From: Deltaproteobacteria bacterium
GTDB lineage: Bacteria > Chloroflexota > Dehalococcoidia > Dehalococcoidales > BS750m-G39
Length of the DNA stretch: 64,000 nt
NCBI GenBank assembly: GCA_030603275.1
Contig: JAUVYB010000005.1
Location: 13,928 to 77,927 of the forward strand
Direction of reading: 5' to 3'
Notes under the pieces: model-generated
What the model saw: only the letters and a program-made list of their open reading frames with translations
The model's database searches: none
What the model was told of the DNA's origin: nothing
Part shown: piece by piece, positions 1 to 42,282 of the stretch
How the letters are laid out: the number at the start of each line of letters is the position of its first letter
Numbering within the stretch: the stretch's first letter is position 1
Translations under genes and position numbers: made by a program

Positions 1-469
1 CACAGTGCTGGAGCTGGGGGCGGAAGCCGGCCATATCTAAAAGGTGCATCTCAAAGTAGCGCAGTATTAAATCGTTATCGCCGTCCTGGCTTAAGCTTTG
101 CAGGGTCTCTACCAGTAGCTGGAACAGGGGGTAGTCTTCCACATTATCGGCGGCGAACTGGTTGACCAGCTCGGTGGCGTAGAGGGCGTAGGAGGTGAGG
201 TCGAGGTCTGTTTTGAGGGGCATAAAGCTGTTGATGGTCTGGGAGCCGATTATGGTATCCAGGTTGCGCCCGCGCGCCAGAGACAGCTGGCTGTGGGTGA
301 GCAGTTCCAGGTGCCCGGCCATCTTGCTGCGGGGGCGCCTGACCCCCTTGGCTACCGCCTGAATCTTGCCCAGGTGGGGGGTATAGAGGGTGAGTATCCT
401 GCCCGCCTCCCCCAGCTTGGTCTTTTTGATTATTACGGCTTCTGTTTGGTAGTTACGTGGTTTAGACAT
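1..469 (-). CDS. recO: DNA repair protein RecO, N-terminal ~156 aa (gene continues past the window start)
   Basis: Absent from the ORF track because it is cut by the window edge. My minus-strand translation from the ATG at 469 gives MSKPRNYQTEAVIIKKTKLGEAGRILTLYTPHLGKIQAVAKGVRRPRSKMAGHLELLTHSQLSLARGRNLDTI..., a typical RecO OB-fold N-terminus. Confidence 0.85.
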   Translation of the reverse strand, partial: MSKPRNYQTEAVIIKKTKLGEAGRILTLYTPHLGKIQAVAKGVRRPRSKMAGHLELLTHSQLSLARGRNLDTIIGSQTINSFMPLKTDLDLTSYALYATELVNQFAADNVEDYPLFQLLVETLQSLSQDGDNDLILRYFEMHLLDMAGFRPQLQHC

Positions 470-478
470 TTTATTGAT

Positions 479-1054
479 CTATTTATTGAAGTTTACTTTA
501 TCTGGTTCTCTATAATCTCTTTTTAACAGGATATCTCTTTCTTTTAAGAGACAGGCTCTATTGTGCGCTATAGCTTTATCAAATTCTTCGCTGTGCCATG
601 CTTCAATACATAAACGTCCCATATCGTGAAATGGGTCATCATAATTCGGTATATCCAGACTCATTCTCGCTGCCGCTTTACTTTCGAATTTAAATTCTTG
701 TAGTTCCCCATCGAAGTTAATTGTTATTCCTATATGATGAAACCAGACACTGCTCTCAAAACCAGTATTGAAGGCATAAAAGGGTCTTTCAAGGCGGTTT
801 AAAATCTGTTCCGTTTGTGATTTTAATTCTTCGATAGCTTCTCTATCTTGGGCGCAGAATATTTGAAGTTCCTTATCATTGATTAGGCCGAAGATTACTT
901 GCTGTAAATTCTCGCATTGTCTTGAATCATTACAGGCGGTATATGACCTGTTTCTGGTAAATTCTCCAATGGTTTCAATATCAATGATTGTGCCTTTGAA
1001 AGAACCGGAGGGAGTAATTTCTTTATGCTCTATTATCACCTTTGTTGTTCCCAA
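479..1054 (-). CDS. Putative DEDDh-type 3'-5' exonuclease / RNase H-like fold protein (function uncertain)
   Basis: 191-aa ORF. Candidate Exo motifs: IIDIETIG (D-x-E), AFNTGFE, HSEEFD (H-x4-D). Its stop lies 10 nt upstream of the recO start. Clearly AT-rich compared with both flanks. Confidence 0.45.
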   Translation of the reverse strand: MGTTKVIIEHKEITPSGSFKGTIIDIETIGEFTRNRSYTACNDSRQCENLQQVIFGLINDKELQIFCAQDREAIEELKSQTEQILNRLERPFYAFNTGFESSVWFHHIGITINFDGELQEFKFESKAAARMSLDIPNYDDPFHDMGRLCIEAWHSEEFDKAIAHNRACLLKERDILLKRDYREPDKVNFNK

Positions 1055-1105
1055 AGTGTTTGAACCTGACTTTCCGTAACCCCTTCCTTAAAGAGTGGGG
1101 GGAGT

Positions 1106-1157
1106 GACCCTTCCACTTAAGGGTGGAGGGTGGGAATAGATATAAAAAGGGGAGGGG
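1106..1157. repeat. G-rich intergenic repeat, family C, copy 1
   Basis: CTTAAGGGTGGAGGGTGGGAATAGATATAAAAAGGGGAGGGG, very similar to the copies at 15253-15319 and 25644-25708. Abuts the stop codon of the minus-strand ORF 1158..1487. Confidence 0.7.
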
Positions 1158-1487
1158 TCATCCCTCCTCGGCAAACCAGCCTTCCTTGGTCAGAATCTCC
1201 CCAACCATCATTGTGCTGGGGACATCTCCCCTGGAGACTTGTACTGCCGCCCTGCCGCCGACGGCGCTGGCCACCCTGGCCGCCGCCTGGTGGGTAAAAC
1301 CGGCGCACAGGTAGATGGACTGGACTCCCTGGTTTTGCACTAGGTCCTTGGCCACCTCGACGGCGGCGTCGAAGTCCATCATCTCGATGACTACTGTAGT
1401 AAACTCCAGCTTGGAGGTCTTGATTGTTGACCGGTACTTGGCGGGGTCGCCGTCGGGCGCCATAACGATAAAGGCCGATTTAAACAT
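1158..1487 (-). CDS. Small conserved protein of unknown function (possibly DUF6506-like; from memory only)
   Basis: 109-aa ORF with composition matching its neighbours, sitting between recR and the exonuclease-like gene. No catalytic motif recognised. Confidence 0.5.
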   Translation of the reverse strand: MFKSAFIVMAPDGDPAKYRSTIKTSKLEFTTVVIEMMDFDAAVEVAKDLVQNQGVQSIYLCAGFTHQAAARVASAVGGRAAVQVSRGDVPSTMMVGEILTKEGWFAEEG

Positions 1488-1500
1488 GATAGTAACTCCT

Positions 1501-2112
1501 TTAAAATTCCTGCCTGCCCTCTATAGCCCGGGTGAGGGTGACATCATCGGCGTATTCCAGCTCGGTGCCGAAGGGAAGCCCCCGCGCCAGGCGGGTGACC
1601 ACGATGCCTAAGGGGGAAATGAGCTTGTTGAGATACATGGCGGTGGTTTCCCCTTCCAGATTGGGGTTGGTGGCCAGTATGACCTCGGTTACCGAGCCGT
1701 CCCGCAGACGGTCCATCAGCTCTTTGATTCTTATATCGTCAGTGCCCACCCCCTCGGTGGGGGAGATGGCGCCGTGGAGGACGTGGTACAGCCCGTTATA
1801 TATCTTGGTATGCTCCAGTGCCAGTATGTCCTGCGGCTGTTCCACGATGCAAATCTTGCTCCGCTCCCGCTGGGAGTTGCGGCAGATGGGGCAGGGGTCG
1901 GTATCGGTGATATTAAAGCAGACCGAGCATAGTTTGGTCTGCTGCTTTACCGAGAGCAGGGCTTCGGCCAGCATCTTGGTCTGCTCTTCCGGCGCCCGGA
2001 GCAGGTTATAGGCCAGACGCTGGGCGCTCTTGGGCCCGATGCCGGGCAGTTTATTTAGTTCCTGTATTAACCTGGCTACCGCACCTGAGGTAGGTGTGAG
2101 ATTTGAGTCCAA
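1501..2112 (-). CDS. recR: Recombination protein RecR
   Basis: 203 aa. Helix-hairpin-helix [18 protein letters not shown]4 zinc finger [16 protein letters not shown], Toprim-like C-terminal half. Confidence 0.95.
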
Positions 2113-2146
2113 TATACGCTCTCCCCTCTAAATATTATTATTAGGT

Positions 2147-2232
2147 AACCCTATCCCCTTTATCCCCTTCCCCTCAACAAGGGGAAGAGGAGGAGAATTC
2201 TAAAAGGGGGACTTTGTCCCTCTTAAACACCC
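2147..2232. repeat. Two-hairpin composite intergenic repeat, family AB, copy 1 (partly degenerate)
   Basis: AACCCTATCCCCTTTATCCCCTTCCCCT...AAGGGGAAG...CCTCTTAAACACCC. Matches the reverse complement of 12039-12128. Confidence 0.75.
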
Positions 2233-2290
2233 TATATTCTTTAGTTCCGCTCCTCTTGACCCCCGATAAAGCGGGAGATTGGGAGCACCA

Positions 2291-2325
2291 GCCCCTTAGG
2301 GCGGGTGGGTATGGGAAGAAAAACC
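2291..2325. repeat. G-rich repeat, family C, short copy 2
   Basis: CCTTAGGGCGGGTGGGTATGGGAAGAAAAA resembles the family C core CTTAAGGGYGGNGGGTGGGAA. Confidence 0.45.
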
Positions 2326-2366
2326 CTTTTTAATCGCCCCTTATTTTTTAATTTTACCCCTTAAAT

Positions 2367-2672
2367 TCAGGTCAGGCCGGGGATATTGAGGCCTCCGGTT
2401 AGTTTGCCCATGCGCTCGGCGGCAAGCTCCTGGGATTTGGAGAGGGCTTCGTTTACCGCCGTCATTACCAGGTCTTCCAGCATTTCAACGTCATCGGGCT
2501 CTATCGCCTCGGGCGATATTTTTACCGATAGCACCTGCTGTTGACCGTTGACGGTGACCTTGACGGCACCTCCTCCCGAGGAGGTTTCAATGATAGCTTC
2601 GGCAAGCTCTGCCTGAGCCTTGGCCAGCTTGGCCTGGAGCTCCTGGGCCTGACGCATAAAAGACCTGTTCAC
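2367..2672 (-). CDS. ybaB: Nucleoid-associated protein YbaB/EbfC
   Basis: 101 aa. QELQAKLAKAQAEL...GGGAVKVTVNGQQQV..V.I.PE... is the typical YbaB pattern. Classic position between dnaX and recR. Confidence 0.9.
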   Translation of the reverse strand: MNRSFMRQAQELQAKLAKAQAELAEAIIETSSGGGAVKVTVNGQQQVLSVKISPEAIEPDDVEMLEDLVMTAVNEALSKSQELAAERMGKLTGGLNIPGLT

Positions 2673-4303
2673 TTTTCCTCCACGCTGATAACCTGGGCGC
2701 CGAGCCTTTTGGCGGCGTCCACCAGGTGGTTGTCTTCTGCCTCATATACGCAGCGCACCTGGCAGGGGCGCCCCAGAAAGTTGCTGATGATTGCCCTGGC
2801 GACCTGCTGATTTTCTATTGTCTCCATCTTGTCCTTGTGAATGGGGTATTTAAAGGCCAGAATCACGGTATCGTCTTCAATGGCTACCGGTTTGACCCCG
2901 GCGCTCCTGAGAATGGCGATGGCCGGGGTTCTCTTAACCTCCTCCGGCGCCTTCTCCATGACATCTTTCCAGTTGACCCTAAGACGCTCGATTTCATTGT
3001 TTATCTCGAGTGGGGTGGTGGGGGTGTCATTGGCCTTTGTTGACTTTGCCTTAGACTCGGCTGGTTTTGCCTTAGGCTCGGCCACTGGTTCGGGTGCCGG
3101 TTCCGGTTTGGCCGCTGGCTTGGTTACCGGCTCGGCCTTGGCTGTTGGGGGTTTGGGTGGATAGGCCTTTGTGACCGGCGGGGGAGGTTCTTGCTTTGCC
3201 TGGGGAGCCGGGCTTTTTATTTGCTCAGCCGGCGGCTGGACGCAGTCTACCAGTGCCAGCTCCAGGGGCAGGGTGGAGTAGTTATCAAAGCCGAGGTCAA
3301 GCTGGCCGAAGAGCTTGATTGATTTTGATATCTGGGCTAAAGAGGTTTTAGCCGCCAGCTGTTTTAGTTCGGCCTTATCTTCGGCGGTGATGTCTACGGC
3401 GTCTTCCGAGCCGGTCTTTACCAGCAGCAGCTGCCGGAGGTACTCTACTACCTCACGGTTGAACTGGCGCAGGTCGAGCCCGTCACTGTTGACACCGTTT
3501 ATGGTTGTCACTCCGCCGGCGATGTCACCGGCTACTATGTGCCTGACTAATTCCTTGGCCCGCTGGTCCCCGGTAATGCCCAGGATAGCCTGGACCTGGT
3601 TGAGGCTGATTTCGGTGCCGTAGTAGGTGGTCATCTGCTCCAGCAGGTTTTCGGCATCGCGCAGGCTGCCGGTGGCGCTCTTGGCGATGAGGTTTAGCCC
3701 CTCCGGTTCCAGCTTGATGCCTTCCGTTTCACAGATGCGGGTTAGCTTGGAGATTACGTCTGGGCGGGAGATGCGCCTGAAGTCGAAGCGCTGGCACCGG
3801 GACAGGATGGTGGCCGGGATTTTATGGGCTTCGGTGGTGGCCAGAATAAAGACGATATAGGGGGGTGGTTCCTCCAGGGTTTTGAGCAGGGCATTGGAGG
3901 CACTATTACTGAGCATATGGACTTCATCGATGATATAGACCTTATAGCGGGCCTGGTTGGGGGCGTAGTTCACCTTCTCGCGCAGGCTACGGATATCGTC
4001 AACTCCGGTGTTGGAGGCGGCATCGACCTCAATTACGTCCAGCGCCCGGCCCTCGGTTATGGCCCGGCACATATCGCAGTTATTGCACGGTTCGCCCTTG
4101 CCGTTGCTGAGGCAGTTGAGCGCCTTGGCCAGAATACGCCCGGTGCTGGTCTTGCCGGTTCCCCGGGGGCCGTAAAAGAGATAAGCATGGGATACACGCC
4201 CGCTACTGAGGGCATTGCTTAATGTTTGAGTCACCTGTTCCTGACCGACTATTTCGGCCAGGGTTTGGGGGCGCCACTTGCGATAAAAGACCTGGGATGT
4301 CAT
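2669..4303 (-). CDS. dnaX: DNA polymerase III subunit gamma/tau
   Basis: 544 aa. Walker A GPRGTGKTS, zinc module CNNCDMC, DEVHML, ILSRCQRF, then a P/A/K-rich linker. Overlaps ybaB by 4 nt. Confidence 0.95.
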   Translation of the reverse strand: MTSQVFYRKWRPQTLAEIVGQEQVTQTLSNALSSGRVSHAYLFYGPRGTGKTSTGRILAKALNCLSNGKGEPCNNCDMCRAITEGRALDVIEVDAASNTGVDDIRSLREKVNYAPNQARYKVYIIDEVHMLSNSASNALLKTLEEPPPYIVFILATTEAHKIPATILSRCQRFDFRRISRPDVISKLTRICETEGIKLEPEGLNLIAKSATGSLRDAENLLEQMTTYYGTEISLNQVQAILGITGDQRAKELVRHIVAGDIAGGVTTINGVNSDGLDLRQFNREVVEYLRQLLLVKTGSEDAVDITAEDKAELKQLAAKTSLAQISKSIKLFGQLDLGFDNYSTLPLELALVDCVQPPAEQIKSPAPQAKQEPPPPVTKAYPPKPPTAKAEPVTKPAAKPEPAPEPVAEPKAKPAESKAKSTKANDTPTTPLEINNEIERLRVNWKDVMEKAPEEVKRTPAIAILRSAGVKPVAIEDDTVILAFKYPIHKDKMETIENQQVARAIISNFLGRPCQVRCVYEAEDNHLVDAAKRLGAQVISVEEK

Positions 4304-4384: not shown

Positions 4385-4434
4385 TATTTAAATAAAAGAA
4401 GCCAGCTTTACCGGTTTGCACCAGTAAAGCTGGC
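4385..4434 (-). terminator. Rho-independent terminator downstream of CetZ-like gene A
   Basis: On the minus strand, an 11-bp stem (GCCAGCTTTAC, arms at 4401-4411 and 4424-4434) is followed by TTCTTTTATTTAAAT. It starts 22 nt after the stop at 4457. Confidence 0.6.
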
Positions 4435-4456
4435 TAGATTAGCTACTATCTTGAGT

Positions 4457-5632
4457 TTATAGCAGCGAGGGCAGGTCTTTTGATGCCTCTTCTATTTCCT
4501 TGAGTTTGCCCTCAAACTCCTCCCGTCTTCCCTTAAGTTCGTGGATAACGCCGCTGGCTTTGGTGTAGTAGCCCTTGACCTTTTCCACGGCATTAAGCTC
4601 CGACAGGAGCAGGGTGATGTCGATCAGGCTTTTCTCCCTGGGATAATCGCCATTCCTTATCACTGCCTCCGGACTGATGGTCCTGAGGTAATCTCCCAGC
4701 TCCTTGACTAGGTCCATATTCATTTCCTTGGCTGGAGCCGAGACCAGGTAGATGGCCCTGCCCGAGTCGGCCGGATTGCACTTGAGCGACAGTTCGCTTA
4801 AGGCTTCATCCATGGCTTGGATTCCGCGGTGAGTTTCGGTGCTCTTCTTGACGAAGTTCTTGGATAGGAAGGAGAACCATTTGAAGGCGGGCACCGGTGC
4901 TTTGCCGTAGCCGATTACTGTCCAGCCGGCCAGGCTCTGGATGATGTCACCGGCATCGACTATCTTGGCCCCGATGTGCTTGGGTTTTTTCTCCTCACCG
5001 GCGCAGAGCAGGTTGTAGAATGGCTCAGCGATTAGGGCGTTGATCTTGGTCAGGTTGTTCTTAAGCGAGAAGTCCTTCCTGACATACCTCTGGTTGTCAA
5101 CCAGGAAAACGGCATCTACTGTTGGATACAGGGATTTGAGACAGGTGGCGGTATTATAAACGGTTCTTTCCTCGGTTTCCTCTTCATGGGCGAAGGGGAG
5201 AACGGCCATGGCGTAGATGGGCTTGTCCAGATAGCGCTCTCTTAGCATCTGGGCGATTATAGGGATTGCCCCTGAGCCGGTACCGCCGGCGACGCCGGCG
5301 ATGAGCAGGAAGGCATCGGTCTCGAAGAAGTGCCGTGCCGTCCTGATGGCGTCTACGACCTTGTCGCTGTCCTCTTTGGCCACTTCGGCGCCCAGCTCGT
5401 TTATCTTGCCGACGCCGTGGCCACCGGTCCTCCGACCTCCGATGAGGATTCGGTGCTGGTAGTCACCGCTTATAACTCTTAGTCCGCTTAAGTCGGCGGC
5501 ATCGGTGTTTACGGCGAAAGCGCCGGTAACTATCTCAATGCCGCGCTGACTGCGTGCCCGCTTATTTAACTGGGCGAACTCGTCAGCGATCCTGCCGCCG
5601 CACTGTCCCAGCCCCACAACCACTAGTTTCAT
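4457..5632 (-). CDS. Tubulin/FtsZ-superfamily GTPase, CetZ-like, paralog A
   Basis: 391 aa. MKLVVVGLGQCGG (tubulin-type GQCG), GHGVG, AGGTGSG signature, VLPF, DAVFLVDN, T7-like VDAGDI. Charged C-terminal helix ending in DLPSLL. Confidence 0.75.
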   Translation of the reverse strand: MKLVVVGLGQCGGRIADEFAQLNKRARSQRGIEIVTGAFAVNTDAADLSGLRVISGDYQHRILIGGRRTGGHGVGKINELGAEVAKEDSDKVVDAIRTARHFFETDAFLLIAGVAGGTGSGAIPIIAQMLRERYLDKPIYAMAVLPFAHEEETEERTVYNTATCLKSLYPTVDAVFLVDNQRYVRKDFSLKNNLTKINALIAEPFYNLLCAGEEKKPKHIGAKIVDAGDIIQSLAGWTVIGYGKAPVPAFKWFSFLSKNFVKKSTETHRGIQAMDEALSELSLKCNPADSGRAIYLVSAPAKEMNMDLVKELGDYLRTISPEAVIRNGDYPREKSLIDITLLLSELNAVEKVKGYYTKASGVIHELKGRREEFEGKLKEIEEASKDLPSLL

Positions 5633-5660
5633 ATTTCACCTCTAAGTTCAGAATACTGTC

Positions 5661-5688
5661 ATTTTAGCATGTTATTCAGTCTTGTCAA
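5661..5688 (-). promoter_or_regulatory. Sigma-70-like promoter for paralog A
   Basis: Minus strand: TTGACA (5688-5683), 16-nt spacer, TAAAAT (5666-5661). An AGAGGTGA Shine-Dalgarno precedes the ATG at 5632. Confidence 0.5.
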
Positions 5689-5693
5689 CATAT

Positions 5694-6869
5694 CTAATCC
5701 AGAGTAGGGAGCTCGTCGCCTGTATGATGCATTTCTTTCACTTGCTCCCGGGTTTCTTTATCTATTTCCACCTGCTTGTCAAATAGCTCGGTAGCGTGGC
5801 TGAATAGAGTTTCCACCCGACCTACCCTGGCTAATCCGGAAGCCAATAATGTTAGCGAGACTTCCTTGCCTCTTCGGGGGTAATCACCCATTCTGACTAC
5901 TGCTTTAGGAGCTCGCTCTTGCAACAGAGTCGCCACCTCTTCTATGGCGCTCAGGGTAATAGTTCCTCTGGGGGCGGTGAGCAGGACCAGGATTCTCCTG
6001 GCCTCTGCCAGGTCGATTGATACCGACAGGTTGCTTATTGCCTTGTCCAGGGCTCCGGCTACGGAGCCGTGTTCCCTGGCTTCTTCCCGGAAGTGCGACT
6101 TGTTAAGGCGGTGGAAGGTGCCCATTTCAATCTGCCCCCGGCCGATGGCGGTGATGCCGCCCAGGGTCTGTTTGATATCCCCGGCATCCAGCACCTTGCT
6201 TCCCAGGTATTTCATCCTTTTCTCTTCACCGGCGCAGAAAAGGTCATAGAAATTATTAACGAACTCGTGGTTTATCTGGTGCAGATTTCGGGAGAAGCTG
6301 TTGTCCCGGCGGGCGAAGCGTTCGTTATCCACCAGAAAGACGGCGTCAGCGTACTGGCTGACCGTTTTTAAACAGGTGGCGGTATTGGTTACAGCATAGG
6401 AGGTAAGTCCGTTTTCTTCGTAGCCGAAGGGAAGCACTATGACGGCGTAGACCGGCTTATCCATCCTTTCCTTGAGTGACTTGACCACCCAGCCGATGGA
6501 GCCGGAGCCGGTACCCCCACCGCCGCTGGCTATGGTCAGAACTGCGTCGGTTTCGTGGAATTTTCTGGAGTCCAGGATGTTATCGGTGATGGTCGAGTGG
6601 CTTTCCCGGATAATCTTGGCGGCATCGAAATTCATTTTGCCCACGCCATGGCCGAAGGTTCTCACCCCGCCGATGACAATCCGGTGGTGCCTGTCGGTGG
6701 GGATGTGCTTGAATCCGCCTAAATCGGCTTCATCGGTGTTAACGGCGAAGGCATCGGTTAGGATTTCAATCCGGCGGGTAAAGAGTGACCGGGCGTGAGT
6801 GTTGAGGGCATAAAACTGGTCGGCAATGTTGCAGCCGCACTGTCCAAAACCTACAACGACTATTTTCAT
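5694..6869 (-). CDS. Tubulin/FtsZ-superfamily GTPase, CetZ-like, paralog B
   Basis: 391 aa. MKIVVVGFGQCG, GHGVG, exact tubulin signature GGGTGSG, VLPF, DAVFLVDN, LDAGDI. C-terminal tail DELPTLD. Roughly 45% identical to paralog A by eye. Confidence 0.75.
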   Translation of the reverse strand: MKIVVVGFGQCGCNIADQFYALNTHARSLFTRRIEILTDAFAVNTDEADLGGFKHIPTDRHHRIVIGGVRTFGHGVGKMNFDAAKIIRESHSTITDNILDSRKFHETDAVLTIASGGGGTGSGSIGWVVKSLKERMDKPVYAVIVLPFGYEENGLTSYAVTNTATCLKTVSQYADAVFLVDNERFARRDNSFSRNLHQINHEFVNNFYDLFCAGEEKRMKYLGSKVLDAGDIKQTLGGITAIGRGQIEMGTFHRLNKSHFREEAREHGSVAGALDKAISNLSVSIDLAEARRILVLLTAPRGTITLSAIEEVATLLQERAPKAVVRMGDYPRRGKEVSLTLLASGLARVGRVETLFSHATELFDKQVEIDKETREQVKEMHHTGDELPTLD

Positions 6870-6899
6870 CGTCCACCTCGCAAAGGGGAATAATGTTTT

Positions 6900-6929
6900 A
6901 TTTTAGGCATGGTTAGCCTAAATTGTCAA
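6900..6929 (-). promoter_or_regulatory. Sigma-70-like promoter for paralog B
   Basis: Minus strand: TTGACA (6929-6924), 18-nt spacer, TAAAAT (6905-6900). Same hexamers as the paralog A promoter. Confidence 0.45.
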
Positions 6930-6943: not shown

Positions 6944-7972
<1,029 letters not shown>

Positions 7973-8980
7973 TTAAGCGATTTTTGTCCTTCGCCGACTG
8001 CGATGGAGCATATCGAGGAAGGCTTCGACCCTGGTTTTAAGGTGGTGGGTCAGGGAGAACTCGTCATTGCCTTCCAGTGTCAGGATGGGCAATTTTAACT
8101 TATTTCTAAAGATTATATCACCGATGCCGCGGTAGCAGAAGGCCTGGACATAGTGGATGACGCCGTCCACCCGGCGCTTGTTTAATTCGGCGGTGATGTC
8201 CTTAAGTCTATCATATATGGAGTATGGATATGTATAGTTTGAGTACTGTTCGGCCAGCGAGTTGCCGGGGTGGGGCATGGCGAACTGGCGCTGGATTTCG
8301 TTGAAGACCACCCTGGCCCCCTTTGTCTCCAGATATTTATAGAGGTCCTGGCCGTAGACCGAGGGCACCCCGATATAGGCTATTCTCAGCCAGTCCGGTG
8401 GATATGATGGGCGCTTGAGGCACTTTTCCACTAATTCTTTCAGCTCTTTCTGGTAGTTATGATAGTCCTGATTAAAGTCTGAGGAAGATACCAGCCAGAG
8501 GTGGTTCTCCAGCCCGCTGGCCACCCCCTGTTTCCAGGTAAGCTCGTCCAGCTTTAGCGCCAGCCGGCGGCAGGGCTTTAGTTCTTCTTTGACCTGCCCG
8601 GCGGCGTCCAGGGTGGTGTTTAAGGTTTTTGCCAGCGACTCTAACGCATCTTGCATTTTCTGGCGGTCGGGCCGGTCCGGGTAGGCGAAGGGTATGGTCT
8701 TGATTCCTTTAAGTTTTAGCACCTCCATGAGCATGACGGTATTTGAACAGTCGCCGGTGGTGACGCAGAGGATGGTATCAATTTTATGCTCCAGGCAGGC
8801 CCCGTAGATTCCCTTAATCCAGCTGCAGCAGTTGAGGGGGAAGCCGGCACGTTCGGCGATGTTGATTAATCTTTCCGGGTTGGGGTCGGCGATAAAGACA
8901 TTATTGAGGTCTACCGGCTGGTAGCCGGCGGCTAATAATATTTCTATAGGAACGGTGGTGGTGATGCCTATTTTATTCAC
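7973..8980 (-). CDS. 2-hydroxyacyl-CoA dehydratase family protein (HgdB/BcrC-like, solitary)
   Basis: 335 aa. N-terminal IGITTTVPIEILLAAGY and conserved Cys positions typical of the family, recalled from memory. No partner subunit or activator gene nearby. Confidence 0.6.
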   Translation of the reverse strand: MNKIGITTTVPIEILLAAGYQPVDLNNVFIADPNPERLINIAERAGFPLNCCSWIKGIYGACLEHKIDTILCVTTGDCSNTVMLMEVLKLKGIKTIPFAYPDRPDRQKMQDALESLAKTLNTTLDAAGQVKEELKPCRRLALKLDELTWKQGVASGLENHLWLVSSSDFNQDYHNYQKELKELVEKCLKRPSYPPDWLRIAYIGVPSVYGQDLYKYLETKGARVVFNEIQRQFAMPHPGNSLAEQYSNYTYPYSIYDRLKDITAELNKRRVDGVIHYVQAFCYRGIGDIIFRNKLKLPILTLEGNDEFSLTHHLKTRVEAFLDMLHRSRRRTKIA

Positions 8981-9989
8981 TGGTTTTCGCTTTTTGGGGA
9001 AGGCGGTAGTACAGGATATCCTCCCGGGTGAATTTTTCCAGCTCTCCCTTAACCCTCATCGCTTCCAGGTGGGCCAGTGTTTCCAGTAGGGCCATTCTCT
9101 TGTCCCAGGTGCCCAGCTTATACCAGCCGACGCCGTTGACATCGTGCATCCAGGTTATCCCGGTGGTCAGCTCGAAGGCCGTCTTGGAGTCGTAGCCGAG
9201 GGCGGCCATAATTTCGGCGTTTCTTAAGCTGTGGTGCAGGGTAATGCCCTCAATCCTGTCTTTGAGTCCGGTGAAGGGCTGCTCGTGGCCGGGCAGGACG
9301 AGGTCGACATCCAGCCGTTTAAGGCTATTGATTGAATCCAGGTAATCACCCAGCGGGTTGGAGCCCGACTGCGGGTTCATGCCGACATAGGGGGTAATAG
9401 TTGGCAGTATGTGGTCTCCCGAAAACAATATTTTCTTATCCGGCTCGTAGAGGCAGATATGCCCCGGGGCGTGCCCCGGCGTGGGCAGGACGTTGAAGCT
9501 GAAATCGCCGCAGGTGATGGCCTCGCCGCCGTAGAGGGTGACATCGGGCATGGCGGGGGTAACGAACTTCAGCATCGGCAGGGAGGCTTTTTGGAGTTCG
9601 GCGAGCCGGTCCGGCGGCACCCCGTTGCCCTTTAACCACAGGCTCATCTCCTTGAGAAGCTCGTCCATGTTGACGTATCTTGACTCAATAACGTCCTTTT
9701 CCAGGTGGTGAAAATACAGGGTGGCGCCGAAAAGGTTTTTAAGCTTGCCGGCCATGCCGTAGTGGTCGGGGTGGGCGTGGGTGACAACTATGCGGGAGAT
9801 TTCCCGGCCGTTGATGCCAAGCTCTGCCAGCTGTTTTTTCAGTGAGGCGAAGGCCTCTTCCGTGTTCCAGCCGGTGTCAACCAGCAGATAGCCGTTATCC
9901 CCTTTGACCAGGTAGGTATTGATATGGCTCACGGTGGGGATGGGCAACGGCAGCGGCATACGATATATACCAGGTATGACCTCAATCAT
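8973..9989 (-). CDS. MBL-fold metallo-hydrolase
   Basis: 338 aa. THAHPDHYG metal-binding motif plus downstream H/D ligands. Overlaps the next gene by 8 nt. Confidence 0.85.
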   Translation of the reverse strand: MIEVIPGIYRMPLPLPIPTVSHINTYLVKGDNGYLLVDTGWNTEEAFASLKKQLAELGINGREISRIVVTHAHPDHYGMAGKLKNLFGATLYFHHLEKDVIESRYVNMDELLKEMSLWLKGNGVPPDRLAELQKASLPMLKFVTPAMPDVTLYGGEAITCGDFSFNVLPTPGHAPGHICLYEPDKKILFSGDHILPTITPYVGMNPQSGSNPLGDYLDSINSLKRLDVDLVLPGHEQPFTGLKDRIEGITLHHSLRNAEIMAALGYDSKTAFELTTGITWMHDVNGVGWYKLGTWDKRMALLETLAHLEAMRVKGELEKFTREDILYYRLPQKAKTSE

Positions 9990-10004
9990 GTCTCACCTGC
10001 GGCT

Positions 10005-11775
<1,771 letters not shown>

Positions 11776-11860
11776 GTATAGCGATTATAGCACCTGAAGC
11801 TGGGGTCGGCAAAGGGGGGTTTTTATAGATGGTTGCTGCCCCGCCCAGTTTTAGAAGTCG

Positions 11861-11891
11861 TTTTTCGTCCCACCCTCCCACCCTTCAGAGG
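11861..11891. repeat. G-rich repeat, family C, copy 3 (inverted)
   Basis: The reverse complement reads CCTCTGAAGGGTGGGAGGGTGGGACGAAAAA. It lies in a 369-bp repeat-filled intergenic region. Confidence 0.5.
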
Positions 11892-12038
11892 TTGGAACCT
11901 TTCTCCAACTCGCTTTTATGGGGGTGGGGGGAGAAGGGGAGGAAAGCCGAAGTATTTTTTGGGCGTTTGGTAGAAGCGAAAACTTGTTGAAGGTAGTCAT
12001 TCCTTTTGGGTGGAGGGAGAAGGGGAAGCGACTAATCA

Positions 12039-12128
12039 GGGGTGTTTAAGAGGGGGCGAAGCCCCCTCTTCTTAAAAAATTATTCCCCTTCCCCTTGCCA
12101 AGGGGAAGGGGATAAAGGGGATAGGGTT
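12039..12128. repeat. Two-hairpin composite repeat, family AB, copy 2 (best preserved, inverted relative to copy 1)
   Basis: GGGGTGTTTAAGAGGGGGC-GAA-GCCCCCTCTT...CCCCTTCCCCTT-GCCA-AAGGGGAAGGGGATAAAGGGGATAGGGTT. Has a 10-bp and a 12-bp perfect stem. Confidence 0.8.
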
Positions 12129-12144
12129 CCCTTATAAAAAATAT

Positions 12145-12717
12145 CTAATTAAACTTATTCATGGCCGGGGTCAGCCCCTCAGCGAGCAGGTAGAGGACGG
12201 CTTCGCTCACCCTGGGTATAATCTGGTTGATGGCCTTTTTTTCTTCAGATGTAAAATTGTTGAGCACATAGTCTATAATATCGTCTTCGCCGGGGTTGGC
12301 CTTATCCGGCCGGCCGATGCCCACCCGGATGCGGGTGAACTCCCGGGTGCCCAGCTCCTGGATAATAGAGCTAATGCCCTTGTGCCCCCCGGAGCCGCTG
12401 CCGGAACTTACGCGGATTTTAGCCAGGGGCAGGTCAAGGTCGTCGTGGATGACCAGCATGTCCTGGGGATTGACGCTGAATTTCCGCACCAGGCGGCTTA
12501 CCGACCGGCCGCTATTATTCATGTAGGTCTGGGGCCGGGCCAGCACCAACTTGTTTCCGGCCACCGCCCCCGTGCCGACGCGGGCCAGCCCCTGTTTGCG
12601 GTCGAACTTTATCCCCTGGGTGCGGGCGAAATATCTCAGGCAGATAAAGCCGATATTGTGGCGGTTACCGGCGTAGGACCGCCCCGGGTTACCTAAACCT
12701 ACGATTAGTTTCGTCAT
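12145..12717 (-). CDS. pth: Peptidyl-tRNA hydrolase
   Basis: 190 aa. LIVGLGNPG..Y...RHNIGF, bacterial Pth type. Confidence 0.95.
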   Translation of the reverse strand: MTKLIVGLGNPGRSYAGNRHNIGFICLRYFARTQGIKFDRKQGLARVGTGAVAGNKLVLARPQTYMNNSGRSVSRLVRKFSVNPQDMLVIHDDLDLPLAKIRVSSGSGSGGHKGISSIIQELGTREFTRIRVGIGRPDKANPGEDDIIDYVLNNFTSEEKKAINQIIPRVSEAVLYLLAEGLTPAMNKFN

Positions 12718-12744
12718 AAAGCATAATCTCCGGGAGGGGTATAG

Positions 12745-13116
12745 CTATTTTACCTTGCCCAGGCTGTAATCGGCATACGGCTGGTCGGTTTCCGGGTCCC
12801 AGTACCAGATGTCGCCGTCAATGATGGTTGTACAATCTACTATATATGTCTCTGTATATGAATCGTAGTAGTAGGCGGCCGAGACGATATAGCCGTCCCT
12901 GAGGGCATCCTCCTGTACCTCCAGGGCCTTGTTATACCACTCGCTGGCATAGTCGCAGATTGGCTTTTCGGAGACATCGTTGGCCTGCAGCCACTGCGTA
13001 AGCTCCTCATATGAGGAGAAGTCCCGGAGCTGACAGTTTGCGCCGCATCCCGCCAGCGTAATGGCTATCAGGCAGAAAGCCACCAGACCTGTTAATAACC
13101 AGCTGAAACGTTTCAT
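12745..13116 (-). CDS. Lipoprotein of unknown function
   Basis: 123 aa. Signal peptide with lipobox LAGC. The domain starting LRDFSSYEEL resembles the C-terminal domain of 17102..17764. Confidence 0.6.
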   Translation of the reverse strand: MKRFSWLLTGLVAFCLIAITLAGCGANCQLRDFSSYEELTQWLQANDVSEKPICDYASEWYNKALEVQEDALRDGYIVSAAYYYDSYTETYIVDCTTIIDGDIWYWDPETDQPYADYSLGKVK

Positions 13117-13131
13117 CTTTACCTCTTTCTG

Positions 13132-15186
<2,055 letters not shown>

Positions 15187-19617: not shown

Positions 19618-20793
19618 CTAAGTAGACTTTATATAACGTCTCTTGCCCGCTCTTATAATATCATCTTTTTGAACGATATAATTCACGTCTTTCTCTCTTT
19701 TATCATTAATATATACACCACCCTGATCAATAAGACGCCTGGCTTCGCTCTTACTTTTAGCCAGCTGGTTTTCCACGAGATAATCCTGAAGACTCTTGCC
19801 TGACTTGGTACCCAGGGCTATCTTCTCCGGCACCTCTTTCCTCTGCACCGTCCTTTCAAAGTGCCCTTCGGCTTCGGCGGCTGCTTTCCGGTCATAGAGC
19901 TGGGCAATGATTTCCCGTGCCAGCCGTTTTTTGAGCGTCATGGGGTTGGCGGTGGTGTTATCCAGTCCCTTTTTGAACTGCTCCAGCTCCTCGTCGGGGA
20001 CATCGGTCAACAGCTCAAAGTAGTTTATAATCAGGCTATCGGGGACGGACATCACCTTGCCGTATATCTGCTCCGGCGTTTCAGCGACGCCGATATAGTT
20101 ACCCAGGCTCTTGCTCATCTTCTGGCTGCCGTCCGTGCCCACCAGCAGGGGGACCATAAAGCACTGCTGGGGGGGTTGGCCGACCATGGACTGGAGCTCC
20201 CGGCCTACCAGGAAGTTGAATTTCTGGTCGGTGCCGCCGAACTCTACATCGGCCTTAATCGCCACCGAGTCGTAGGCCACGAGGAGGGGGTAGAGCAGCT
20301 CGGTGATGGCGATGGGTTTCTCGGCTTTATAGCGGGCGCTGAAGTCGTCCCGCGCCAGGAACTGGGCCACGGTGAACTTGCTGGTGAGCTGGATAATATC
20401 AGTCAGCGTGAACTTGCCGAACCATTCGCTCTGCCACCTGATTTCGGTCTTTTTCTTATCGACTATCTTGAAGAACTGCTGCATGTAGGTTTGGGCGTTG
20501 GCCTTGACCTGCTCCAGGGTCAGCATGGGGCGGGTGACCGACATGCCGCTGGGGTCGCCGATCTGGGCCGTCCAGTCGGCGACGATGAGGACAATCTGGT
20601 GCCCCAGCTCCTGGAACTGCCGCAGCTTGCGCAGGGCTACCATATGACCTAAATGGATATCGGGGAAGCTGGGGTCAAAGCCCTCCTTCAAGCGCAGTTT
20701 TTTGCCCGAGCGCAAAAGCGCCCTCATCTCTTCTTCGACGATGATTTCCGCCACCCCGCGTTTCAGCACATAATCGATGTCTAGATTTGTCAT
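19618..20793 (-). CDS. tyrS: Tyrosine--tRNA ligase
   Basis: 391 aa. HLGH (as DIHLGHMV), KMSKS, C-terminal S4 domain (ARRLIDQGGVYINDKR). Confidence 0.95.
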   Translation of the reverse strand: MTNLDIDYVLKRGVAEIIVEEEMRALLRSGKKLRLKEGFDPSFPDIHLGHMVALRKLRQFQELGHQIVLIVADWTAQIGDPSGMSVTRPMLTLEQVKANAQTYMQQFFKIVDKKKTEIRWQSEWFGKFTLTDIIQLTSKFTVAQFLARDDFSARYKAEKPIAITELLYPLLVAYDSVAIKADVEFGGTDQKFNFLVGRELQSMVGQPPQQCFMVPLLVGTDGSQKMSKSLGNYIGVAETPEQIYGKVMSVPDSLIINYFELLTDVPDEELEQFKKGLDNTTANPMTLKKRLAREIIAQLYDRKAAAEAEGHFERTVQRKEVPEKIALGTKSGKSLQDYLVENQLAKSKSEARRLIDQGGVYINDKREKDVNYIVQKDDIIRAGKRRYIKST

Positions 20794-21866: not shown

Positions 21867-21929
21867 GCTGAGCAAATAACTAAGCGGGTTAGGTTAATAA
21901 ATAACTTTCTTGTGCTATACTTGGCTTGA

Positions 21930-22001
21930 GCCAGCGTAGCTCAGGGGTAGAGCAGCGGTTTCGTAAACCGCCGGTCGTCAGTTCGAATCTGACCGCTGGC
22001 T
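21930..22001 (+). tRNA. tRNA-Thr (anticodon CGT)
   Basis: Hand-folded cloverleaf: acceptor GCCAGCG/CGCTGGC, D arm GCTC/GAGC, anticodon stem GCGGT/ACCGC with loop TTCGTAA, T arm GTCAG-TTCGAAT-CTGAC. No encoded CCA. Confidence 0.93.
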
Positions 22002-22097
22002 GTCTTTGTTTGGGGTTCTGTTGCCGACATTTTGCCGACAAACTGTCTAGCACCCGGGGGAACCCGCGAGTACAGCCAGATACAAAATTGGGCTTAT

Positions 22098-22169
22098 GCC
22101 AGCGTAGCTCAGGGGTAGAGCAGCGGTTTTGTAAACCGCCGGTCGTCAGTTCGAATCTGACCGCTGGCT
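22098..22169 (+). tRNA. tRNA-Thr (anticodon TGT)
   Basis: Identical to the previous tRNA except for one base, C34 to T34 (anticodon loop TTTGTAA). Confidence 0.93.
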
Positions 22170-27770: not shown

Positions 27771-27951
27771 CTTGGCCTGTTCTCCACCGCATTATACCGC
27801 TTGCGACCTGTCAATGCGAGGGGGCATTGATGTTTTTTTGATGTAAATTTGACGTTTTGCTGATGCCGTTTCTAGGCTTTTTTGATTGCTATGGTGCTAT
27901 GTTATTGGTAAGCCCGATTACGCTTCGAGGCGGGCAGAACAGGAGGTAAGC

Positions 27952-40799: not shown

Positions 40800-40801
40800 C
40801 A

Positions 40802-41560
40802 ATGGCGAGCAGAAAGAACTCAGTGGTTAAGATGGATGCCGGCGGCGTTTACTACCGGGAGCTTAACGCTAACTTAAGAAAAGCCGTTACCAACAGCACC
40901 CGCCGCATCGAGCTCCGCAACGTCTACGGGCAGAGGTACATCGGCACCGATTTGAATAAGCCGGTGGAGATTGAGATATTCGGCACTCCCGGTAACGACC
41001 TGGGGGCCTTTATGAACGGGCCCAGGATTATCGTCTGGGGCAACGCCCAGGACGGCTGCGGCAATACCATGAACGAGGGCGAAATAGTAATCCACGGCCA
41101 CGCCGGAGATATTATCGGGCTATCGGCGCGGGGTGGCAAAATCTTTGTCCGCGATGACGTGGGCTACCGGGCGGGCATCCATATGAAGGAGTACCGGGAT
41201 CGTAAGCCGGCGCTGGTTATCGGGGGCACCGCCCAGGACTTTGTCGGCGAGTATATGGCCGGCGGTGTGCTGATCCTGCTGGGCCTGAATTTAAAAGAGG
41301 GCGAGAGTCATAAAGCCAATTTTATCGGCACAGGCATGCACGGCGGCGTTATCTACCTGAGGGGAAGCGTCGAGGAGTACCAGCTGGGTAAGGAGGTAGG
41401 CGTCGCCCAGCTGGAGGACGCCGACCGTCAGGTTCTTAAGCAGCTGGTCGGCGAGTTCGCCGCCCACTTCGGCTACGATGCTGGCGAGATACTGAAGCAT
41501 AAGTTTATAAAGCTGTTTCCCCGCTGGCTGCGGCCTTACGGCCGGCTCTACGCCTATTGA
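40802..41560 (+). CDS. Glutamate synthase GXGXG-motif domain protein (GltB domain 3-like)
   Basis: 252 aa. Repetitive beta-helix pattern: G.AG...G..M.GG.I.V.G.AGD..G. Confidence 0.85.
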   Translation: MASRKNSVVKMDAGGVYYRELNANLRKAVTNSTRRIELRNVYGQRYIGTDLNKPVEIEIFGTPGNDLGAFMNGPRIIVWGNAQDGCGNTMNEGEIVIHGHAGDIIGLSARGGKIFVRDDVGYRAGIHMKEYRDRKPALVIGGTAQDFVGEYMAGGVLILLGLNLKEGESHKANFIGTGMHGGVIYLRGSVEEYQLGKEVGVAQLEDADRQVLKQLVGEFAAHFGYDAGEILKHKFIKLFPRWLRPYGRLYAY

Positions 41561-41575
41561 TGGGGGTGGACAATA

Positions 41576-42241: not shown

Positions 42242-42282
42242 ATAAAGGTTATTGAATTAGCTTTTAGAGAGGTGAGATTTAA

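Follow-up and report, generated by a model that had tools for sequence, protein, structure and literature searches.

The closest described relatives of the two genes reported here are the archaeal CetZ proteins, represented by CetZ1 and CetZ2 of Haloferax volcanii (PDB 4B46 and 4B45) and by CetZ of Methanosaeta thermophila (3ZID). These proteins combine a Tubulin GTPase domain with a CetZ_C domain and a C-terminal helix, and they end in a short peptide of acidic and hydrophobic character. A genome has several paralogs, which differ in their tails, and the hosts lack peptidoglycan and have S-layer-type walls. Recent work has shown that the terminal LESLF of Haloferax CetZ1 is needed for its function (bioRxiv 10.1101/2024.04.08.588506). 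Where papers of 2023–2024 (including PMC9856176) introduce the family, they still call CetZ archaea-specific in the passages concerned. Santana-Molina et al. 2023 (PMC9871819) did list CetZ-like proteins in Chloroflexota-Dehalococcoidia, which their CetZ C-terminal HMM matches, gave them one sentence and called the groups sparse and paraphyletic. Those are very probably the same proteins as the ones described below, and the name "Tubulin-like protein CetZ" is already attached to some entries in databases. To call the bacterial system undescribed, as the original prediction did tentatively, was an overstatement: the presence of the proteins had been listed, and no functional or genomic description of Dehalococcoidia CetZ-like proteins was found in the literature. 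What is new beyond PMC9871819 is the division into paralog subfamilies, the conserved locus, the C-terminal tail, the coiled-coil-like neighbours, the linkage to ftsZ and the spread over thousands of sequences.

The locus lies in a 64-kb window, by which is meant the whole stretch of 64,000 nucleotides that was analysed. Its features are the following, in window coordinates.

5694..6869, minus strand: CetZ-like paralog A, complete ORF of 391 aa, A-type subfamily
4457..5632, minus strand: CetZ-like paralog B, complete ORF of 391 aa, widespread dnaX-linked subfamily
6900..6929, minus strand: sigma-70-type promoter of A (TTGACA, 18 nt, TAAAAT; 11/12 positions match)
6874..6879, minus strand: ribosome-binding site (RBS) GAGGTG of A, shortly upstream of the ATG at 6869
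5661..5688, minus strand: sigma-70-type promoter of B (TTGACA, 16 nt, TG-n-TAAAAT; 11/12), within the A-B spacer
5637..5642, minus strand: RBS GAGGTG of B, upstream of the ATG at 5632
4400..4435, minus strand: intrinsic terminator after B (16-bp stem, 4-nt loop, T-run; sequence scan)
2..4303, minus strand: downstream syntenic frame (from Pfam, ORFs and tblastn), comprising the next five lines
2669-4303, minus strand: dnaX
2367-2672, minus strand: ybaB
1501-2112, minus strand: recR
minus strand, listed between recR and recO: two small ORFs
2-469, minus strand: recO, partial (tblastn)
6944..15174, minus strand: upstream syntenic frame (from Pfam; order conserved in relatives), comprising the next seven lines
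6944-7960, minus strand: gapdh
7973-8980, minus strand: HGD-D-like gene
8973-9989, minus strand: metallo-beta-lactamase gene
10005-11279, minus strand: enolase
11281-11775, minus strand: SLOG/LOG-like gene
12145-12717, minus strand: pth
13132-15174, minus strand: NAD-dependent ligA

Two adjacent same-strand paralogs of exactly 391 aa had been predicted, and the two complete ORFs bear this out; they form a tandem whose strand, left unstated in the prediction, is the minus strand, with a 61-bp spacer between them. The encoded proteins are 44% identical over their full length (BLASTP E 7e-104). A third 391-aa ORF of the window (19618..20793) encodes TyrRS, so that its equal length is a coincidence. 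The bacterial character of the flanks had also been noted, and recO (partial), recR, ybaB, dnaX, gapdh, enolase, pth and NAD-dependent ligA are all present. As neighbours, these DNA-repair and glycolysis genes are uninformative on function, and no ftsZ occurs within the 64-kb window.

Domain models place both proteins in the CetZ family. Pfam Tubulin (PF00091) matches B with 121 bits and A with 88 bits (gathering score 33), and CetZ_C (PF21011) matches nearly over its whole model, with 56.5 bits in B and 72.1 bits in A (gathering score 21.6). FtsZ_C reaches 14 bits in A only, under its gathering score of 27, Pfam gives no Tubulin_C match in either protein, and the NCBIfam ftsZ model TIGR00065 scores 70.9 and 49.6 bits for the two proteins against a cut-off of 295.2. 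In phmmer searches of the PDB, 4b46 (CetZ1), 4b45 (CetZ2) and 3zid (Methanosaeta CetZ) came first for both, ahead of any FtsZ, with 4b46 the best match of B (E 4.5e-44, residues 1-380) and of A (E 1e-39). Identity to the archaeal proteins is 28-32%. Fold comparison agrees: when an AlphaFold model of A (pLDDT 88.5) was submitted to Foldseek, CetZ1 and CetZ2 headed the results (E 4e-34 and 7e-32; target-normalised TM 0.90-0.91; rmsd 2.6 A), and the best FtsZ reached only E 7e-24. The suggestion that the pair is closer to CetZ than to FtsZ is therefore confirmed by the CetZ_C scores, by the distance from the ftsZ cut-off and by the best sequence and fold matches. CetZ has been defined in part by an archaeal host, and here the flanking genes, the promoters and the MAG labels all identify the host as Dehalococcoidales, an order of the Chloroflexota. 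Since an archaeal host reflects the known distribution of the family and not a molecular property, A and B are best filed as a bacterial branch of CetZ.

The motifs quoted in the original prediction were each found in the two sequences. The T1 loop reads GLGQCGG in B and GFGQCGC in A, not the GGGGxN of FtsZ; the T4 signature is AGGTGSG in B and GGGGTGSG in A; and the T7 loop, VDAGDI in B and LDAGDI in A, keeps both acidic residues. GHGVG, VLPF and DAVFLVDN are present in both, together with R-x-GDYPR in A and RNGDYPR in B. In our alignment, GQxGG, GHGVG, NELGAE, LVDN and RxGDYP are common to A, B, CetZ1 and CetZ2 and differ from the FtsZ of the same hosts. This comparison is our own, distinct from the published one of CetZ-specific residues at the GTP pocket (Brown and Duggin 2023), and it is consistent with a CetZ identity. 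With bacterial FtsZ the two proteins share the superfamily, the GTPase fold (target-normalised TM ~0.85) and the T7 D-x-x-D spacing, but they carry the GQCG T1 loop, CetZ_C and the GDYP block, fail TIGR00065 and Pfam FtsZ_C, and the CetZ-like proteins show only 27% identity to a Dehalococcoidales FtsZ (L020 8686-9816). There are differences from archaeal CetZ as well. In the T1 loop, Cys (GQCG) takes the place of the archaeal Ala (GQAG); CetZ1 has the longer M-loop, and no clear amphipathic tip like the membrane-binding one of the CetZ1 M-loop was seen in A or B.

The C-terminal tail is a second distinguishing feature. Paralog A has a long C-terminal helix, and the chain ends in DELPTLD in A and KDLPSLL in B. 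Over 116 copies the tail is near-invariant and subfamily-specific, with the consensus KD(I/L)P(S/T)LL in B and in a third paralog, C2, and (D/N)(E/L)LP(S/T)L(D/E) in A. MAFFT aligns it to the DVPSFL of FtsZ, and the co-resident FtsZ has a conserved peptide ending in (D/S)(V/I)P(S/A)F(L/M)R. Archaeal CetZ representatives end in DI(D/E)SL(L/F) or ETLF; the bacterial tails (of DIPSLL type) differ from these and from LESLF in having Pro, as does the D(I/V)P-x-(F/L)-L type peptide of FtsZ. By sequence, then, the tail is similar to that of CetZ1 and likewise to the C-terminal peptide of FtsZ, the likeness to FtsZ spanning about six residues. It may also simply be inherited from the CetZ ancestor and have another partner.

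In about 80 species-level genomes the genes occupy the same slot. These 80 loci, which come from MAGs of Dehalococcoidales, Dehalococcoidaceae or Dehalococcoidia and include the closed chromosome CP070810.1, share the syntenic frame eno-(mbl)-hgdD-gapdh-[CetZ]-dnaX-(ybaB)-recR. The downstream order is the same in L082-L086 and in most of the 80 loci. Because this gene order recurs in so many Dehalococcoidales genomes, the contig is neither archaeal nor a chimera nor the product of a recent transfer, and the bacterial host that the flanking genes had suggested is upheld. Homologues of B number over 6000 at E<=1e-10, and at >=56% identity the A-type takes in over 120 clusters. Of the 45 gapdh..dnaX intervals that are complete, 18 have B only, 20 have C2, an insert and B, 4 have A and B, and 3 have A, C2, the insert and B; where C2 is present, two coiled-coil-like genes stand between it and B. 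The A-B tandem of the window is a reduced form of this larger locus of its relatives, which holds A, C2, the two coiled-coil-like genes and B.

Both genes are under purifying selection, with dN/dS against orthologues of 0.07-0.16 for A and 0.08-0.10 for B; because these values are low and homologues run to thousands, the two are more than chance ORFs. A neighbour-joining tree of 85 sequences, rooted on FtsZ and drawn from a sample without labelled Thermococcales CetZ, the sequences by which Brown and Duggin 2023 bound the family, grouped A with P0135 and P0140 (bootstrap 97-98) and separated the bacterial proteins from the group containing HvCetZ1/2 with a bootstrap of only 5-25%, a value compatible with a place either within canonical archaeal CetZ or beside it. 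Any transfer from archaea must be ancient, since the gene has been inherited vertically across the order. A and B are real, conserved members of the CetZ family, belonging to anciently diverged subfamilies within the vertically inherited core genome of Dehalococcoidales.

Each gene had been credited with its own TTGACA/TAAAAT promoter, and a scan found both, each with conserved hexamers in relatives. In an alignment of genomes with the same layout, both hexamers of the A promoter are invariant in 5 genomes amid variable flanks. The B promoter, in which the TG forms an extended -10, has an invariant TTGACA in 6 genomes with TAAAAT 16-18 nt downstream, and both GAGGTG ribosome-binding sites are invariant in the same-layout alignment. 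Given these separate promoters and the terminator after B, the CetZ-like genes form their own transcription units.

The host differs from those of archaeal CetZ in being bacterial and in possessing FtsA and a canonical bacterial FtsZ, and the genes differ in having bacterial neighbours (dnaX, gapdh, sometimes ftsZ) and, in relatives, the coiled-coil-like genes. Dehalococcoidales lack the peptidoglycan genes of the dcw cluster and have an S-layer-like wall (PMC10608941). Canonical FtsA and FtsZ are retained, and a related genome encodes a true FtsZ that has both the Tubulin and the FtsZ_C domain (L020 8686-9816); the CetZ-like proteins are present in addition to FtsZ, not instead of it. An expression hint comes from Dehalococcoides mccartyi BTF08, where an "FtsZ/Tubulin GTPase" distinct from FtsZ, a putative orthologue of the CetZ-like proteins, was abundant in disc-shaped and not in barrel-shaped cells, as was a neighbouring hypothetical protein (PMC8163811).

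The explanation that we hold to be on balance probable is that A and B represent ancient CetZ subfamilies whose GTP-dependent filaments would form an accessory membrane cytoskeleton for shape and/or division beside FtsZ. Such a cytoskeleton is proposed because these cells have lost peptidoglycan synthesis, have an archaeal-style S-layer-like wall and have kept FtsA and FtsZ. Judged from sequence, GTP-driven filaments acting in the shape or division of such peptidoglycan-less, S-layer-walled cells are the likely role. By homology, A and B would each bind GTP through complete T1-T6 loops and polymerise head-to-tail, with the T7 loop (D-A-G-D) of one subunit completing the GTPase site of the next; dynamic protofilaments would result, as with Haloferax CetZ1 and CetZ2. 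Through the terminal peptide at the end of the long C-terminal helix, the proteins most likely dock onto a partner or a membrane tether, and the (D/S)(V/I)P(S/A)F(L/M)R ending of the co-resident FtsZ makes FtsA a candidate partner. At the membrane, the filaments may then shape the cells into disc-shaped cocci and/or assist division without replacing FtsZ. Separately transcribed and with distinct tails, A and B would have separate or cooperating roles like those of CetZ1 and CetZ2, with no obligate heterodimer.

A bolder form of the same idea, which we put forward tentatively and would not expect to hold in full, is that Dehalococcoidales run a dedicated CetZ cytoskeleton of up to three subfamilies (A, C2 and B) with two conserved coiled-coil partners, docked through an FtsZ-like peptide on FtsA, the tether of FtsZ itself, and setting the disc shape and/or division. 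If this were true, CetZ-type filaments would be a general way to shape wall-less, S-layer-bounded cells in both prokaryotic domains, and the gain or retention of CetZ would have accompanied cell-wall loss in the ancestor of Dehalococcoidales.

Another way to read the same evidence is that the proteins are extra division proteins, that is, additional FtsZs (cf. archaeal FtsZ1/FtsZ2) that join the Z-ring through FtsA and offset the loss of septal peptidoglycan, with no role in shape. Some gene arrangements fit this. In L020 and L024 the genes run mraZ-rsmH-ftsA-ftsZ-CetZ-nrdR; L072 and L078 have ftsZ and CetZ converging, and L084 has an A-type copy that diverges from mraZ-rsmH-ftsA. The ftsZ-linked copies come from two different B subclades, and at least two independent relocations are implied. 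The likeness of the tail to the FtsZ peptide would also suit such a role, as would the observation that the abundance of the D. mccartyi tubulin-like protein shifted together with that of FtsZ (PMC8163811). However, linkage to ftsZ/ftsA occurs in only 5 of ~86 loci, and most genomes, that of the window included, place the genes away from division genes, here between gapdh and dnaX. Sequence and fold are those of CetZ and not of FtsZ, and, according to published accounts, characterised CetZs are dispensable for division and CetZ1 is needed for rod-shape development and motility. A role confined to division is therefore rather unlikely, if still the strongest competitor of an accessory cytoskeleton.

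It is also conceivable that A and B can assemble only together, as an obligate heterodimer or heteropolymer, which would explain the tandem; the original prediction had called the pair heterodimer-like and likened it to alpha/beta-tubulin and BtubA/B. The two genes are neighbours on one strand and equal in length, the terminator scan found none between them, their adjacency recurs in L001, L003, L009, L016 and L086, and their subfamily-specific tails differ; like BtubA/BtubB of Prosthecobacter they are bacterial tandem genes of the tubulin superfamily, and paralog A even has the GGGTGSG of tubulins. Yet B occurs without A in 38 of the 45 complete intervals, L081 and L084 carry solitary A-type copies at unrelated loci, and in L082 and L085 the gene after A is C2 and not B. 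Each gene has its own conserved promoter, and the GTP-binding and T7 motifs are all conserved across the A, B and C2 groups; because A and B both keep the T7 D-x-x-D and the GTP loops, the pair lacks the catalytic asymmetry that alpha/beta-tubulin shows. The pair also differs from those systems in lacking Tubulin_C and a kinesin-light-chain-like bklc, in matching their PDB structures over the N-terminal domain only (E 1e-6 to 1e-4) and in not being obligately co-inherited. An obligate pair is thus improbable, and the comparison with alpha/beta-tubulin and BtubA/B is not supported.

Less probable again, to the point of being very unlikely, are filament scaffolds that organise metabolism or DNA transactions and not the envelope. 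The place of the genes between gapdh/eno and dnaX-ybaB-recR hardly varies, with glycolysis genes to one side and clamp-loader and recombination genes to the other. For archaea, Brown and Duggin 2023 (PMC9856176) describe a conserved linkage of cetZ to genes of nucleotide, coenzyme or sugar metabolism and speculate on a role in localising biosynthesis. Against this, the CetZ-like genes are transcribed as units of their own, a conserved order of housekeeping genes says little about functional coupling where genomes are small and streamlined, and the extra copies relocate beside ftsZ/ftsA and not beside metabolic genes.

Finally, an origin in a mobile element (a plasmid or phage system of TubZ/PhuZ-like segregation), a recent insertion from archaea or a chimeric assembly, for which a weak partial Tubulin_2 match (30 bits, B residues 108-207) and the otherwise archaeal distribution of CetZ might be cited, has a negligible likelihood: it is effectively refuted by the synteny of slot and flanks in ~80 species-level genomes including a closed chromosome, and no integrase, TubR-like, centromere-repeat or phage genes lie near A and B in the window, the GC content of the region is unremarkable and matches its surroundings, the Tubulin_2 match is overlapped by a far stronger Tubulin match, and the genes show purifying selection and conserved bacterial promoters. 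The TubZ/PhuZ and Tubulin_2 "FtsZ-like" families are likewise divergent prokaryotic tubulin-superfamily GTPases whose C-terminal tails mediate interactions, but A and B differ in being chromosomal, core and syntenic, in lacking TubR or a centromere, and in being far closer to CetZ.

The two CetZ-like genes of the window, here called A and B, lie in tandem on the minus strand with a 61-bp spacer, each with its own expression signals:

5694..6869, minus strand: A, CetZ-like, complete ORF of 391 aa, the upstream gene
4457..5632, minus strand: B, CetZ-like, complete ORF of 391 aa
6929..6900, minus strand: sigma-70 promoter of A, consensus-like TTGACA-18-TAAAAT
5688..5661, minus strand: sigma-70 promoter of B, consensus-like TTGACA-16-TAAAAT with a TG extension
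4435..4400, minus strand: terminator after B, with a 16-bp stem

The two same-strand 391-aa paralogs of the original prediction were thus recovered as complete ORFs containing every quoted sequence block, and pairwise comparison showed 44% identity between them from end to end (E 7e-104). The prediction of a separate TTGACA/TAAAAT promoter for each gene also held, since both were located and their hexamers, together with the ribosome-binding site GAGGTG ahead of the ATG of A and of B, are kept in other genomes of the same layout; the adjacent bases vary. A scan of the region revealed no terminator between A and B. The dN/dS values against orthologues (0.07-0.16 for A and 0.08-0.10 for B) confirm that A and B are real genes under purifying selection. 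A further 391-aa ORF in the window (19618-20793) was considered as a third paralog and rejected, as it encodes TyrRS.

CetZ is the third major cytoskeleton of the tubulin superfamily, alongside tubulin and FtsZ. Both proteins passed the Pfam Tubulin/FtsZ GTPase domain (B 121 bits, A 88 bits) and CetZ_C (B 56.5 bits, A 72.1 bits; gathering score 21.6), and in the same scan of A and B FtsZ_C fell below threshold and Tubulin_C was absent. Scores for the NCBIfam ftsZ equivalog were 71 and 50 bits, far below the cut-off of 295. When all PDB sequences were searched, the top three matches for A and B, all spanning the full length, were 4B46, 4B45 and 3ZID (E 4.5e-44 to 1e-10), which outranked all FtsZ and tubulin entries and which the fold search identifies as Haloferax volcanii CetZ1, CetZ2 and Methanosaeta thermophila CetZ. 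Direct alignment showed the blocks GQxGG, GHGVG, NELGAE, LVDN and RxGDYP to be common to A, B, CetZ1 and CetZ2, whereas an FtsZ of the same bacterial lineage differs in these blocks. The assignment to CetZ rather than FtsZ is therefore upheld by domain content and by the closest known structures.

Structural modeling agreed. The alignment used for B was shallow and its model mediocre (pLDDT 66), and the model of A, built from a deeper alignment of 57 sequences, reached a pLDDT of 88.5 and a pTM of 0.88. The latter is a two-domain tubulin fold in which the M-loop (251-263) is disordered and a long C-terminal helix (350-386) leads into a terminal peptide. Foldseek placed CetZ1 and CetZ2 at the top (E 4e-34 and 7e-32, target-normalised TM 0.90-0.91, rmsd 2.6 A), and the best FtsZ scored 7e-24. 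GTP-binding loops T1-T6 are intact, and T7 retains both acidic residues, in A, in B and in C2, a third paralog group found in relatives. An amphipathic, membrane-binding M-loop like that of CetZ1 was considered and rejected, as a hydrophobic-moment scan was unremarkable and the loop is merely disordered in the model.

The genes flanking the pair are recO (partial), recR, ybaB and dnaX on one side and gapdh, an HGD-D-like gene, a metallo-beta-lactamase gene, enolase, a SLOG/LOG-like gene, pth and NAD-dependent ligA on the other. A scan at one genome per species returned 135 relatives of B, from which 80 loci were kept, almost all from Dehalococcoidales, Dehalococcoidaceae or Dehalococcoidia MAGs and including the closed 1.03-Mb chromosome CP070810.1. 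The frame eno-(mbl)-hgdD-gapdh-[CetZ]-dnaX-(ybaB)-recR recurs in nearly all of them. Given this shared frame and the even GC content across the region, a chimeric contig, an archaeal contig and a recent insertion are ruled out, and the predicted bacterial neighbourhood is genuine, its housekeeping flanks being bacterial. The CetZ-like gene is a vertically inherited core component of Dehalococcoidales, and there is very little doubt that the family is CetZ-like and its host bacterial.

Four of the loci (L001, L002, L075 and L080) are labelled Deltaproteobacteria, Acidobacteriaceae or Chloroflexia, yet carry the Dehalococcoidales-type locus, with a B gene 72-97% identical and, on contigs that reach far enough, gapdh and/or dnaX beside it; mis-binning or mislabelling is the probable reason. 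In the window, minus-strand ORFs of 191 aa (479-1054; no Pfam match) and 109 aa (1158-1487) separate recR from recO. Locus L086 has ORFs of 103 and 208 aa at the same position, so that by size and position the slot looks conserved.

The 116 full-length copies taken from these loci and the window fall into three groups. The B group (80 copies) adjoins dnaX and shows about 76% mutual identity, while the C2 group (31 copies) adjoins gapdh and is 62-66% identical to B. Group A is about 43% identical to B and to C2 alike, and in a neighbour-joining tree it joins P0135 and P0140, which are separate representatives at the 50%-identity level, with bootstrap 97-98. Its own family, drawn from Dehalococcoidales and Chloroflexota, runs to more than 120 clusters at 56-100% identity, and its orthologues are 58-62% identical in genomes where those of B are 67% identical. 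The low identity to both other groups, the robust separate grouping and the possession of its own orthologues reject the notion that A arose by recent tandem duplication of B or is a C2 copy that evolves fast. Across the 45 complete gapdh..dnaX intervals, the layouts were as follows:

B alone: 18 of 45
C2-insert-B: 20 of 45
A-B adjacent, the layout of the window: 4 of 45
A-C2-insert-B: 3 of 45

Of the 31 C2-B loci examined, 30 have an insert of two opposite-strand genes between C2 and B, a short one (about 160-190 aa) and a long one (about 400-850 aa), the exception being L025 with one 711-aa ORF. Three examples are:

L035, 6586-7098 and 7305-9776, minus strand: the two insert genes
L057, 7744-8295 and 8409-9803: the two insert genes
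L082, 10421-10984 and 11051-12235: the two insert genes

The insert proteins match no Pfam family and have no homologue anywhere in the 64-kb window. Their sequences are repetitive and helical-looking (coiled-coil-like), with a high content of Ala, Glu, Ser, Arg and Lys and, in the long one, a conserved C-terminal RL(E/D)xLARMY motif, and the proteins may be partners of CetZ-like filaments. Lone A-type genes also occur elsewhere, beside sucCD (L081) or divergent from mraZ-rsmH-ftsA (L084). From these genes and the layout counts, it follows that the A-B tandem is a smaller form of a locus that in full holds A, C2, two coiled-coil-like genes and B, and that the pairing of A and B is not obligate.

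Canonical division genes coexist with the family. No ftsZ lies within the 64-kb window, though both ftsA and ftsZ, raised by the original prediction as a point to check, were found in related Dehalococcoidales. In L020 and L024, mraZ-rsmH-ftsA-ftsZ is directly followed by a B-type CetZ-like gene and nrdR, and the FtsZ is canonical (Tubulin plus FtsZ_C, 45% identical to E. coli FtsZ); in L072 and L078, ftsZ and the CetZ-like gene are convergent:

L020, 5811-11986: division cluster plus CetZ-like gene
L072, 359-4309: ftsZ/CetZ-like pair

Three of these four genomes also have a dnaX-linked copy. The ftsZ-linked copies are nearest to dnaX-linked B genes from two different subclades, which would imply two independent relocations beside ftsZ. 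Previous work reports that the peptidoglycan dcw genes are gone from Dehalococcoidales and SAR202, that mraZ-mraW-ftsA-ftsZ stay adjacent, and that the wall resembles an archaeal S-layer (Wiegand et al. 2023, PMC10608941). Unlike this arrangement, L084 (3976-8176, A-type gene and mraZ-rsmH-ftsA), a marine-metagenome contig, has no ftsZ after ftsA within the 15 kb examined.

A near-invariant terminal peptide is common to all 116 copies; it reads KD(I/L)P(S/T)LL in B and C2, and in A it reads (D/N)(E/L)LP(S/T)L(D/E). It resembles the C-terminal peptide of FtsZ from the same organisms (EELDVPSFLRK or EELSIPSFMRQ), with which MAFFT aligned it, as well as the tails of archaeal CetZ representatives (DI(D/E)SL(L/F) or ETLF) and of Haloferax CetZ1 (LESLF). 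A preprint reports that mutation of the CetZ1 tail abolishes rod development in Haloferax (bioRxiv 10.1101/2024.04.08.588506). The peptide would be a partner-docking motif inherited from an FtsZ/CetZ ancestor, with FtsA as a candidate receptor.

By homology, A, B and C2 proteins would polymerise head-to-tail into protofilaments in a GTP-dependent manner; the CetZ2 crystal is, by the title of its PDB entry, a GTPgammaS-bound protofilament, and CetZ1 polymerisation is described as GTP-dependent in the same preprint. Genomic context suggests that they could form an accessory membrane-associated cytoskeleton beside FtsA and FtsZ, serving the shape and/or division of peptidoglycan-less, S-layer-walled cells. 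As a whole, this picture is judged probable by a modest degree. A hint in its favor comes from D. mccartyi BTF08, where an "FtsZ/Tubulin GTPase" (btf_0551), distinct from FtsZ (btf_0595) and a putative orthologue, and a nearby hypothetical protein (btf_0548) are abundant in normal disc-shaped cells, and barrel-shaped cells from co-culture have less of them or none (PMC8163811). Among the best 120 matches to a low-GC Dehalococcoidaceae query, none was a named D. mccartyi protein.

It is possible that the CetZ-like proteins act purely in division, as an extra FtsZ, a role that overlaps the accessory cytoskeleton. A scaffold for metabolism or DNA transactions is suggested by the neighbour genes but is a weak proposal, as the CetZ-like genes are separate transcription units and extra copies relocate beside ftsZ instead. 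The heterodimer-like pair originally envisaged is contradicted in its obligate form by the gene distribution, with A and B occurring apart, and by their symmetric catalytic loops. A mobile element, TubZ-type system or chimera is excluded by synteny.

A broad representative search returned 2951 relatives at E<=1e-3, forming a continuum in which closer relatives bearing names are Dehalococcoidia or Chloroflexota, and the remainder of the tree is archaeal so far as its members bear names (Haloplanus and Halogeometricum CetZ, Nitrososphaerales); the range beyond Dehalococcoidia/Chloroflexota rests on cluster names for a minority of divergent representatives. Deep neighbour-joining nodes between the bacterial clade and archaeal CetZ (bootstrap 5-25) are too weak for placement. 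One archaeal CetZ-like protein near the base of the tree, the 403-aa P0186 from a Bathyarchaeia MAG, ends in KDIPPLL, a Pro-containing tail otherwise typical of the bacterial branch, and may hint at how that branch arose.

CetZ was termed archaea-specific in papers of 2023-2024, later papers speak of archaeal proteins, and one survey covered archaea alone (Brown and Duggin 2023, PMC9856176). The existence of Dehalococcoidia CetZ-like proteins was, however, noted in another 2023 survey (Santana-Molina et al. 2023, PMC9871819), which limits the novelty; the system is undescribed in the functional sense, in that a literature search turned up no publication on the function, paralogs or locus of bacterial CetZ. 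Since most of the entries at NCBI and JGI carry the label "cell division GTPase FtsZ", and some "Tubulin-like protein CetZ", database annotation is also corrected here. What emerges is a large, vertically inherited bacterial CetZ branch under purifying selection, with several old paralog subfamilies, occurring where the envelope has converged on the archaeal type (no peptidoglycan, S-layer-like wall). This makes it testable whether CetZ function tracks envelope type rather than domain of life, and bears on shape and division in the disc-shaped, organohalide-respiring and environmentally important Dehalococcoidia. The proteins are open to biochemical study, and Dehalococcoides mccartyi is cultivable.

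Elsewhere in the window, a plus-strand gene (27886-29328) encodes a 480-aa protein with cohesin, bacterial Ig-like (Big_13) and dockerin type I domains, a cellulosome-style module unexpected for a Dehalococcoidales genome. Two adjoining paralogous CoA-transferase family III genes (444 and 451 aa) occupy 55384-58073 on the minus strand, with a one-base overlap at 56718. A plus-strand nitrogen-assimilation block (39294-48999) comprises a glutamate-synthase-like protein with 4Fe-4S domains, asparagine synthase, an ammonium transporter, glutamine synthetase and glutamine-dependent NAD synthetase, and two tRNA-Thr genes with anticodons CGT and TGT lie about 100 bp apart at 21929-22169 on the plus strand.
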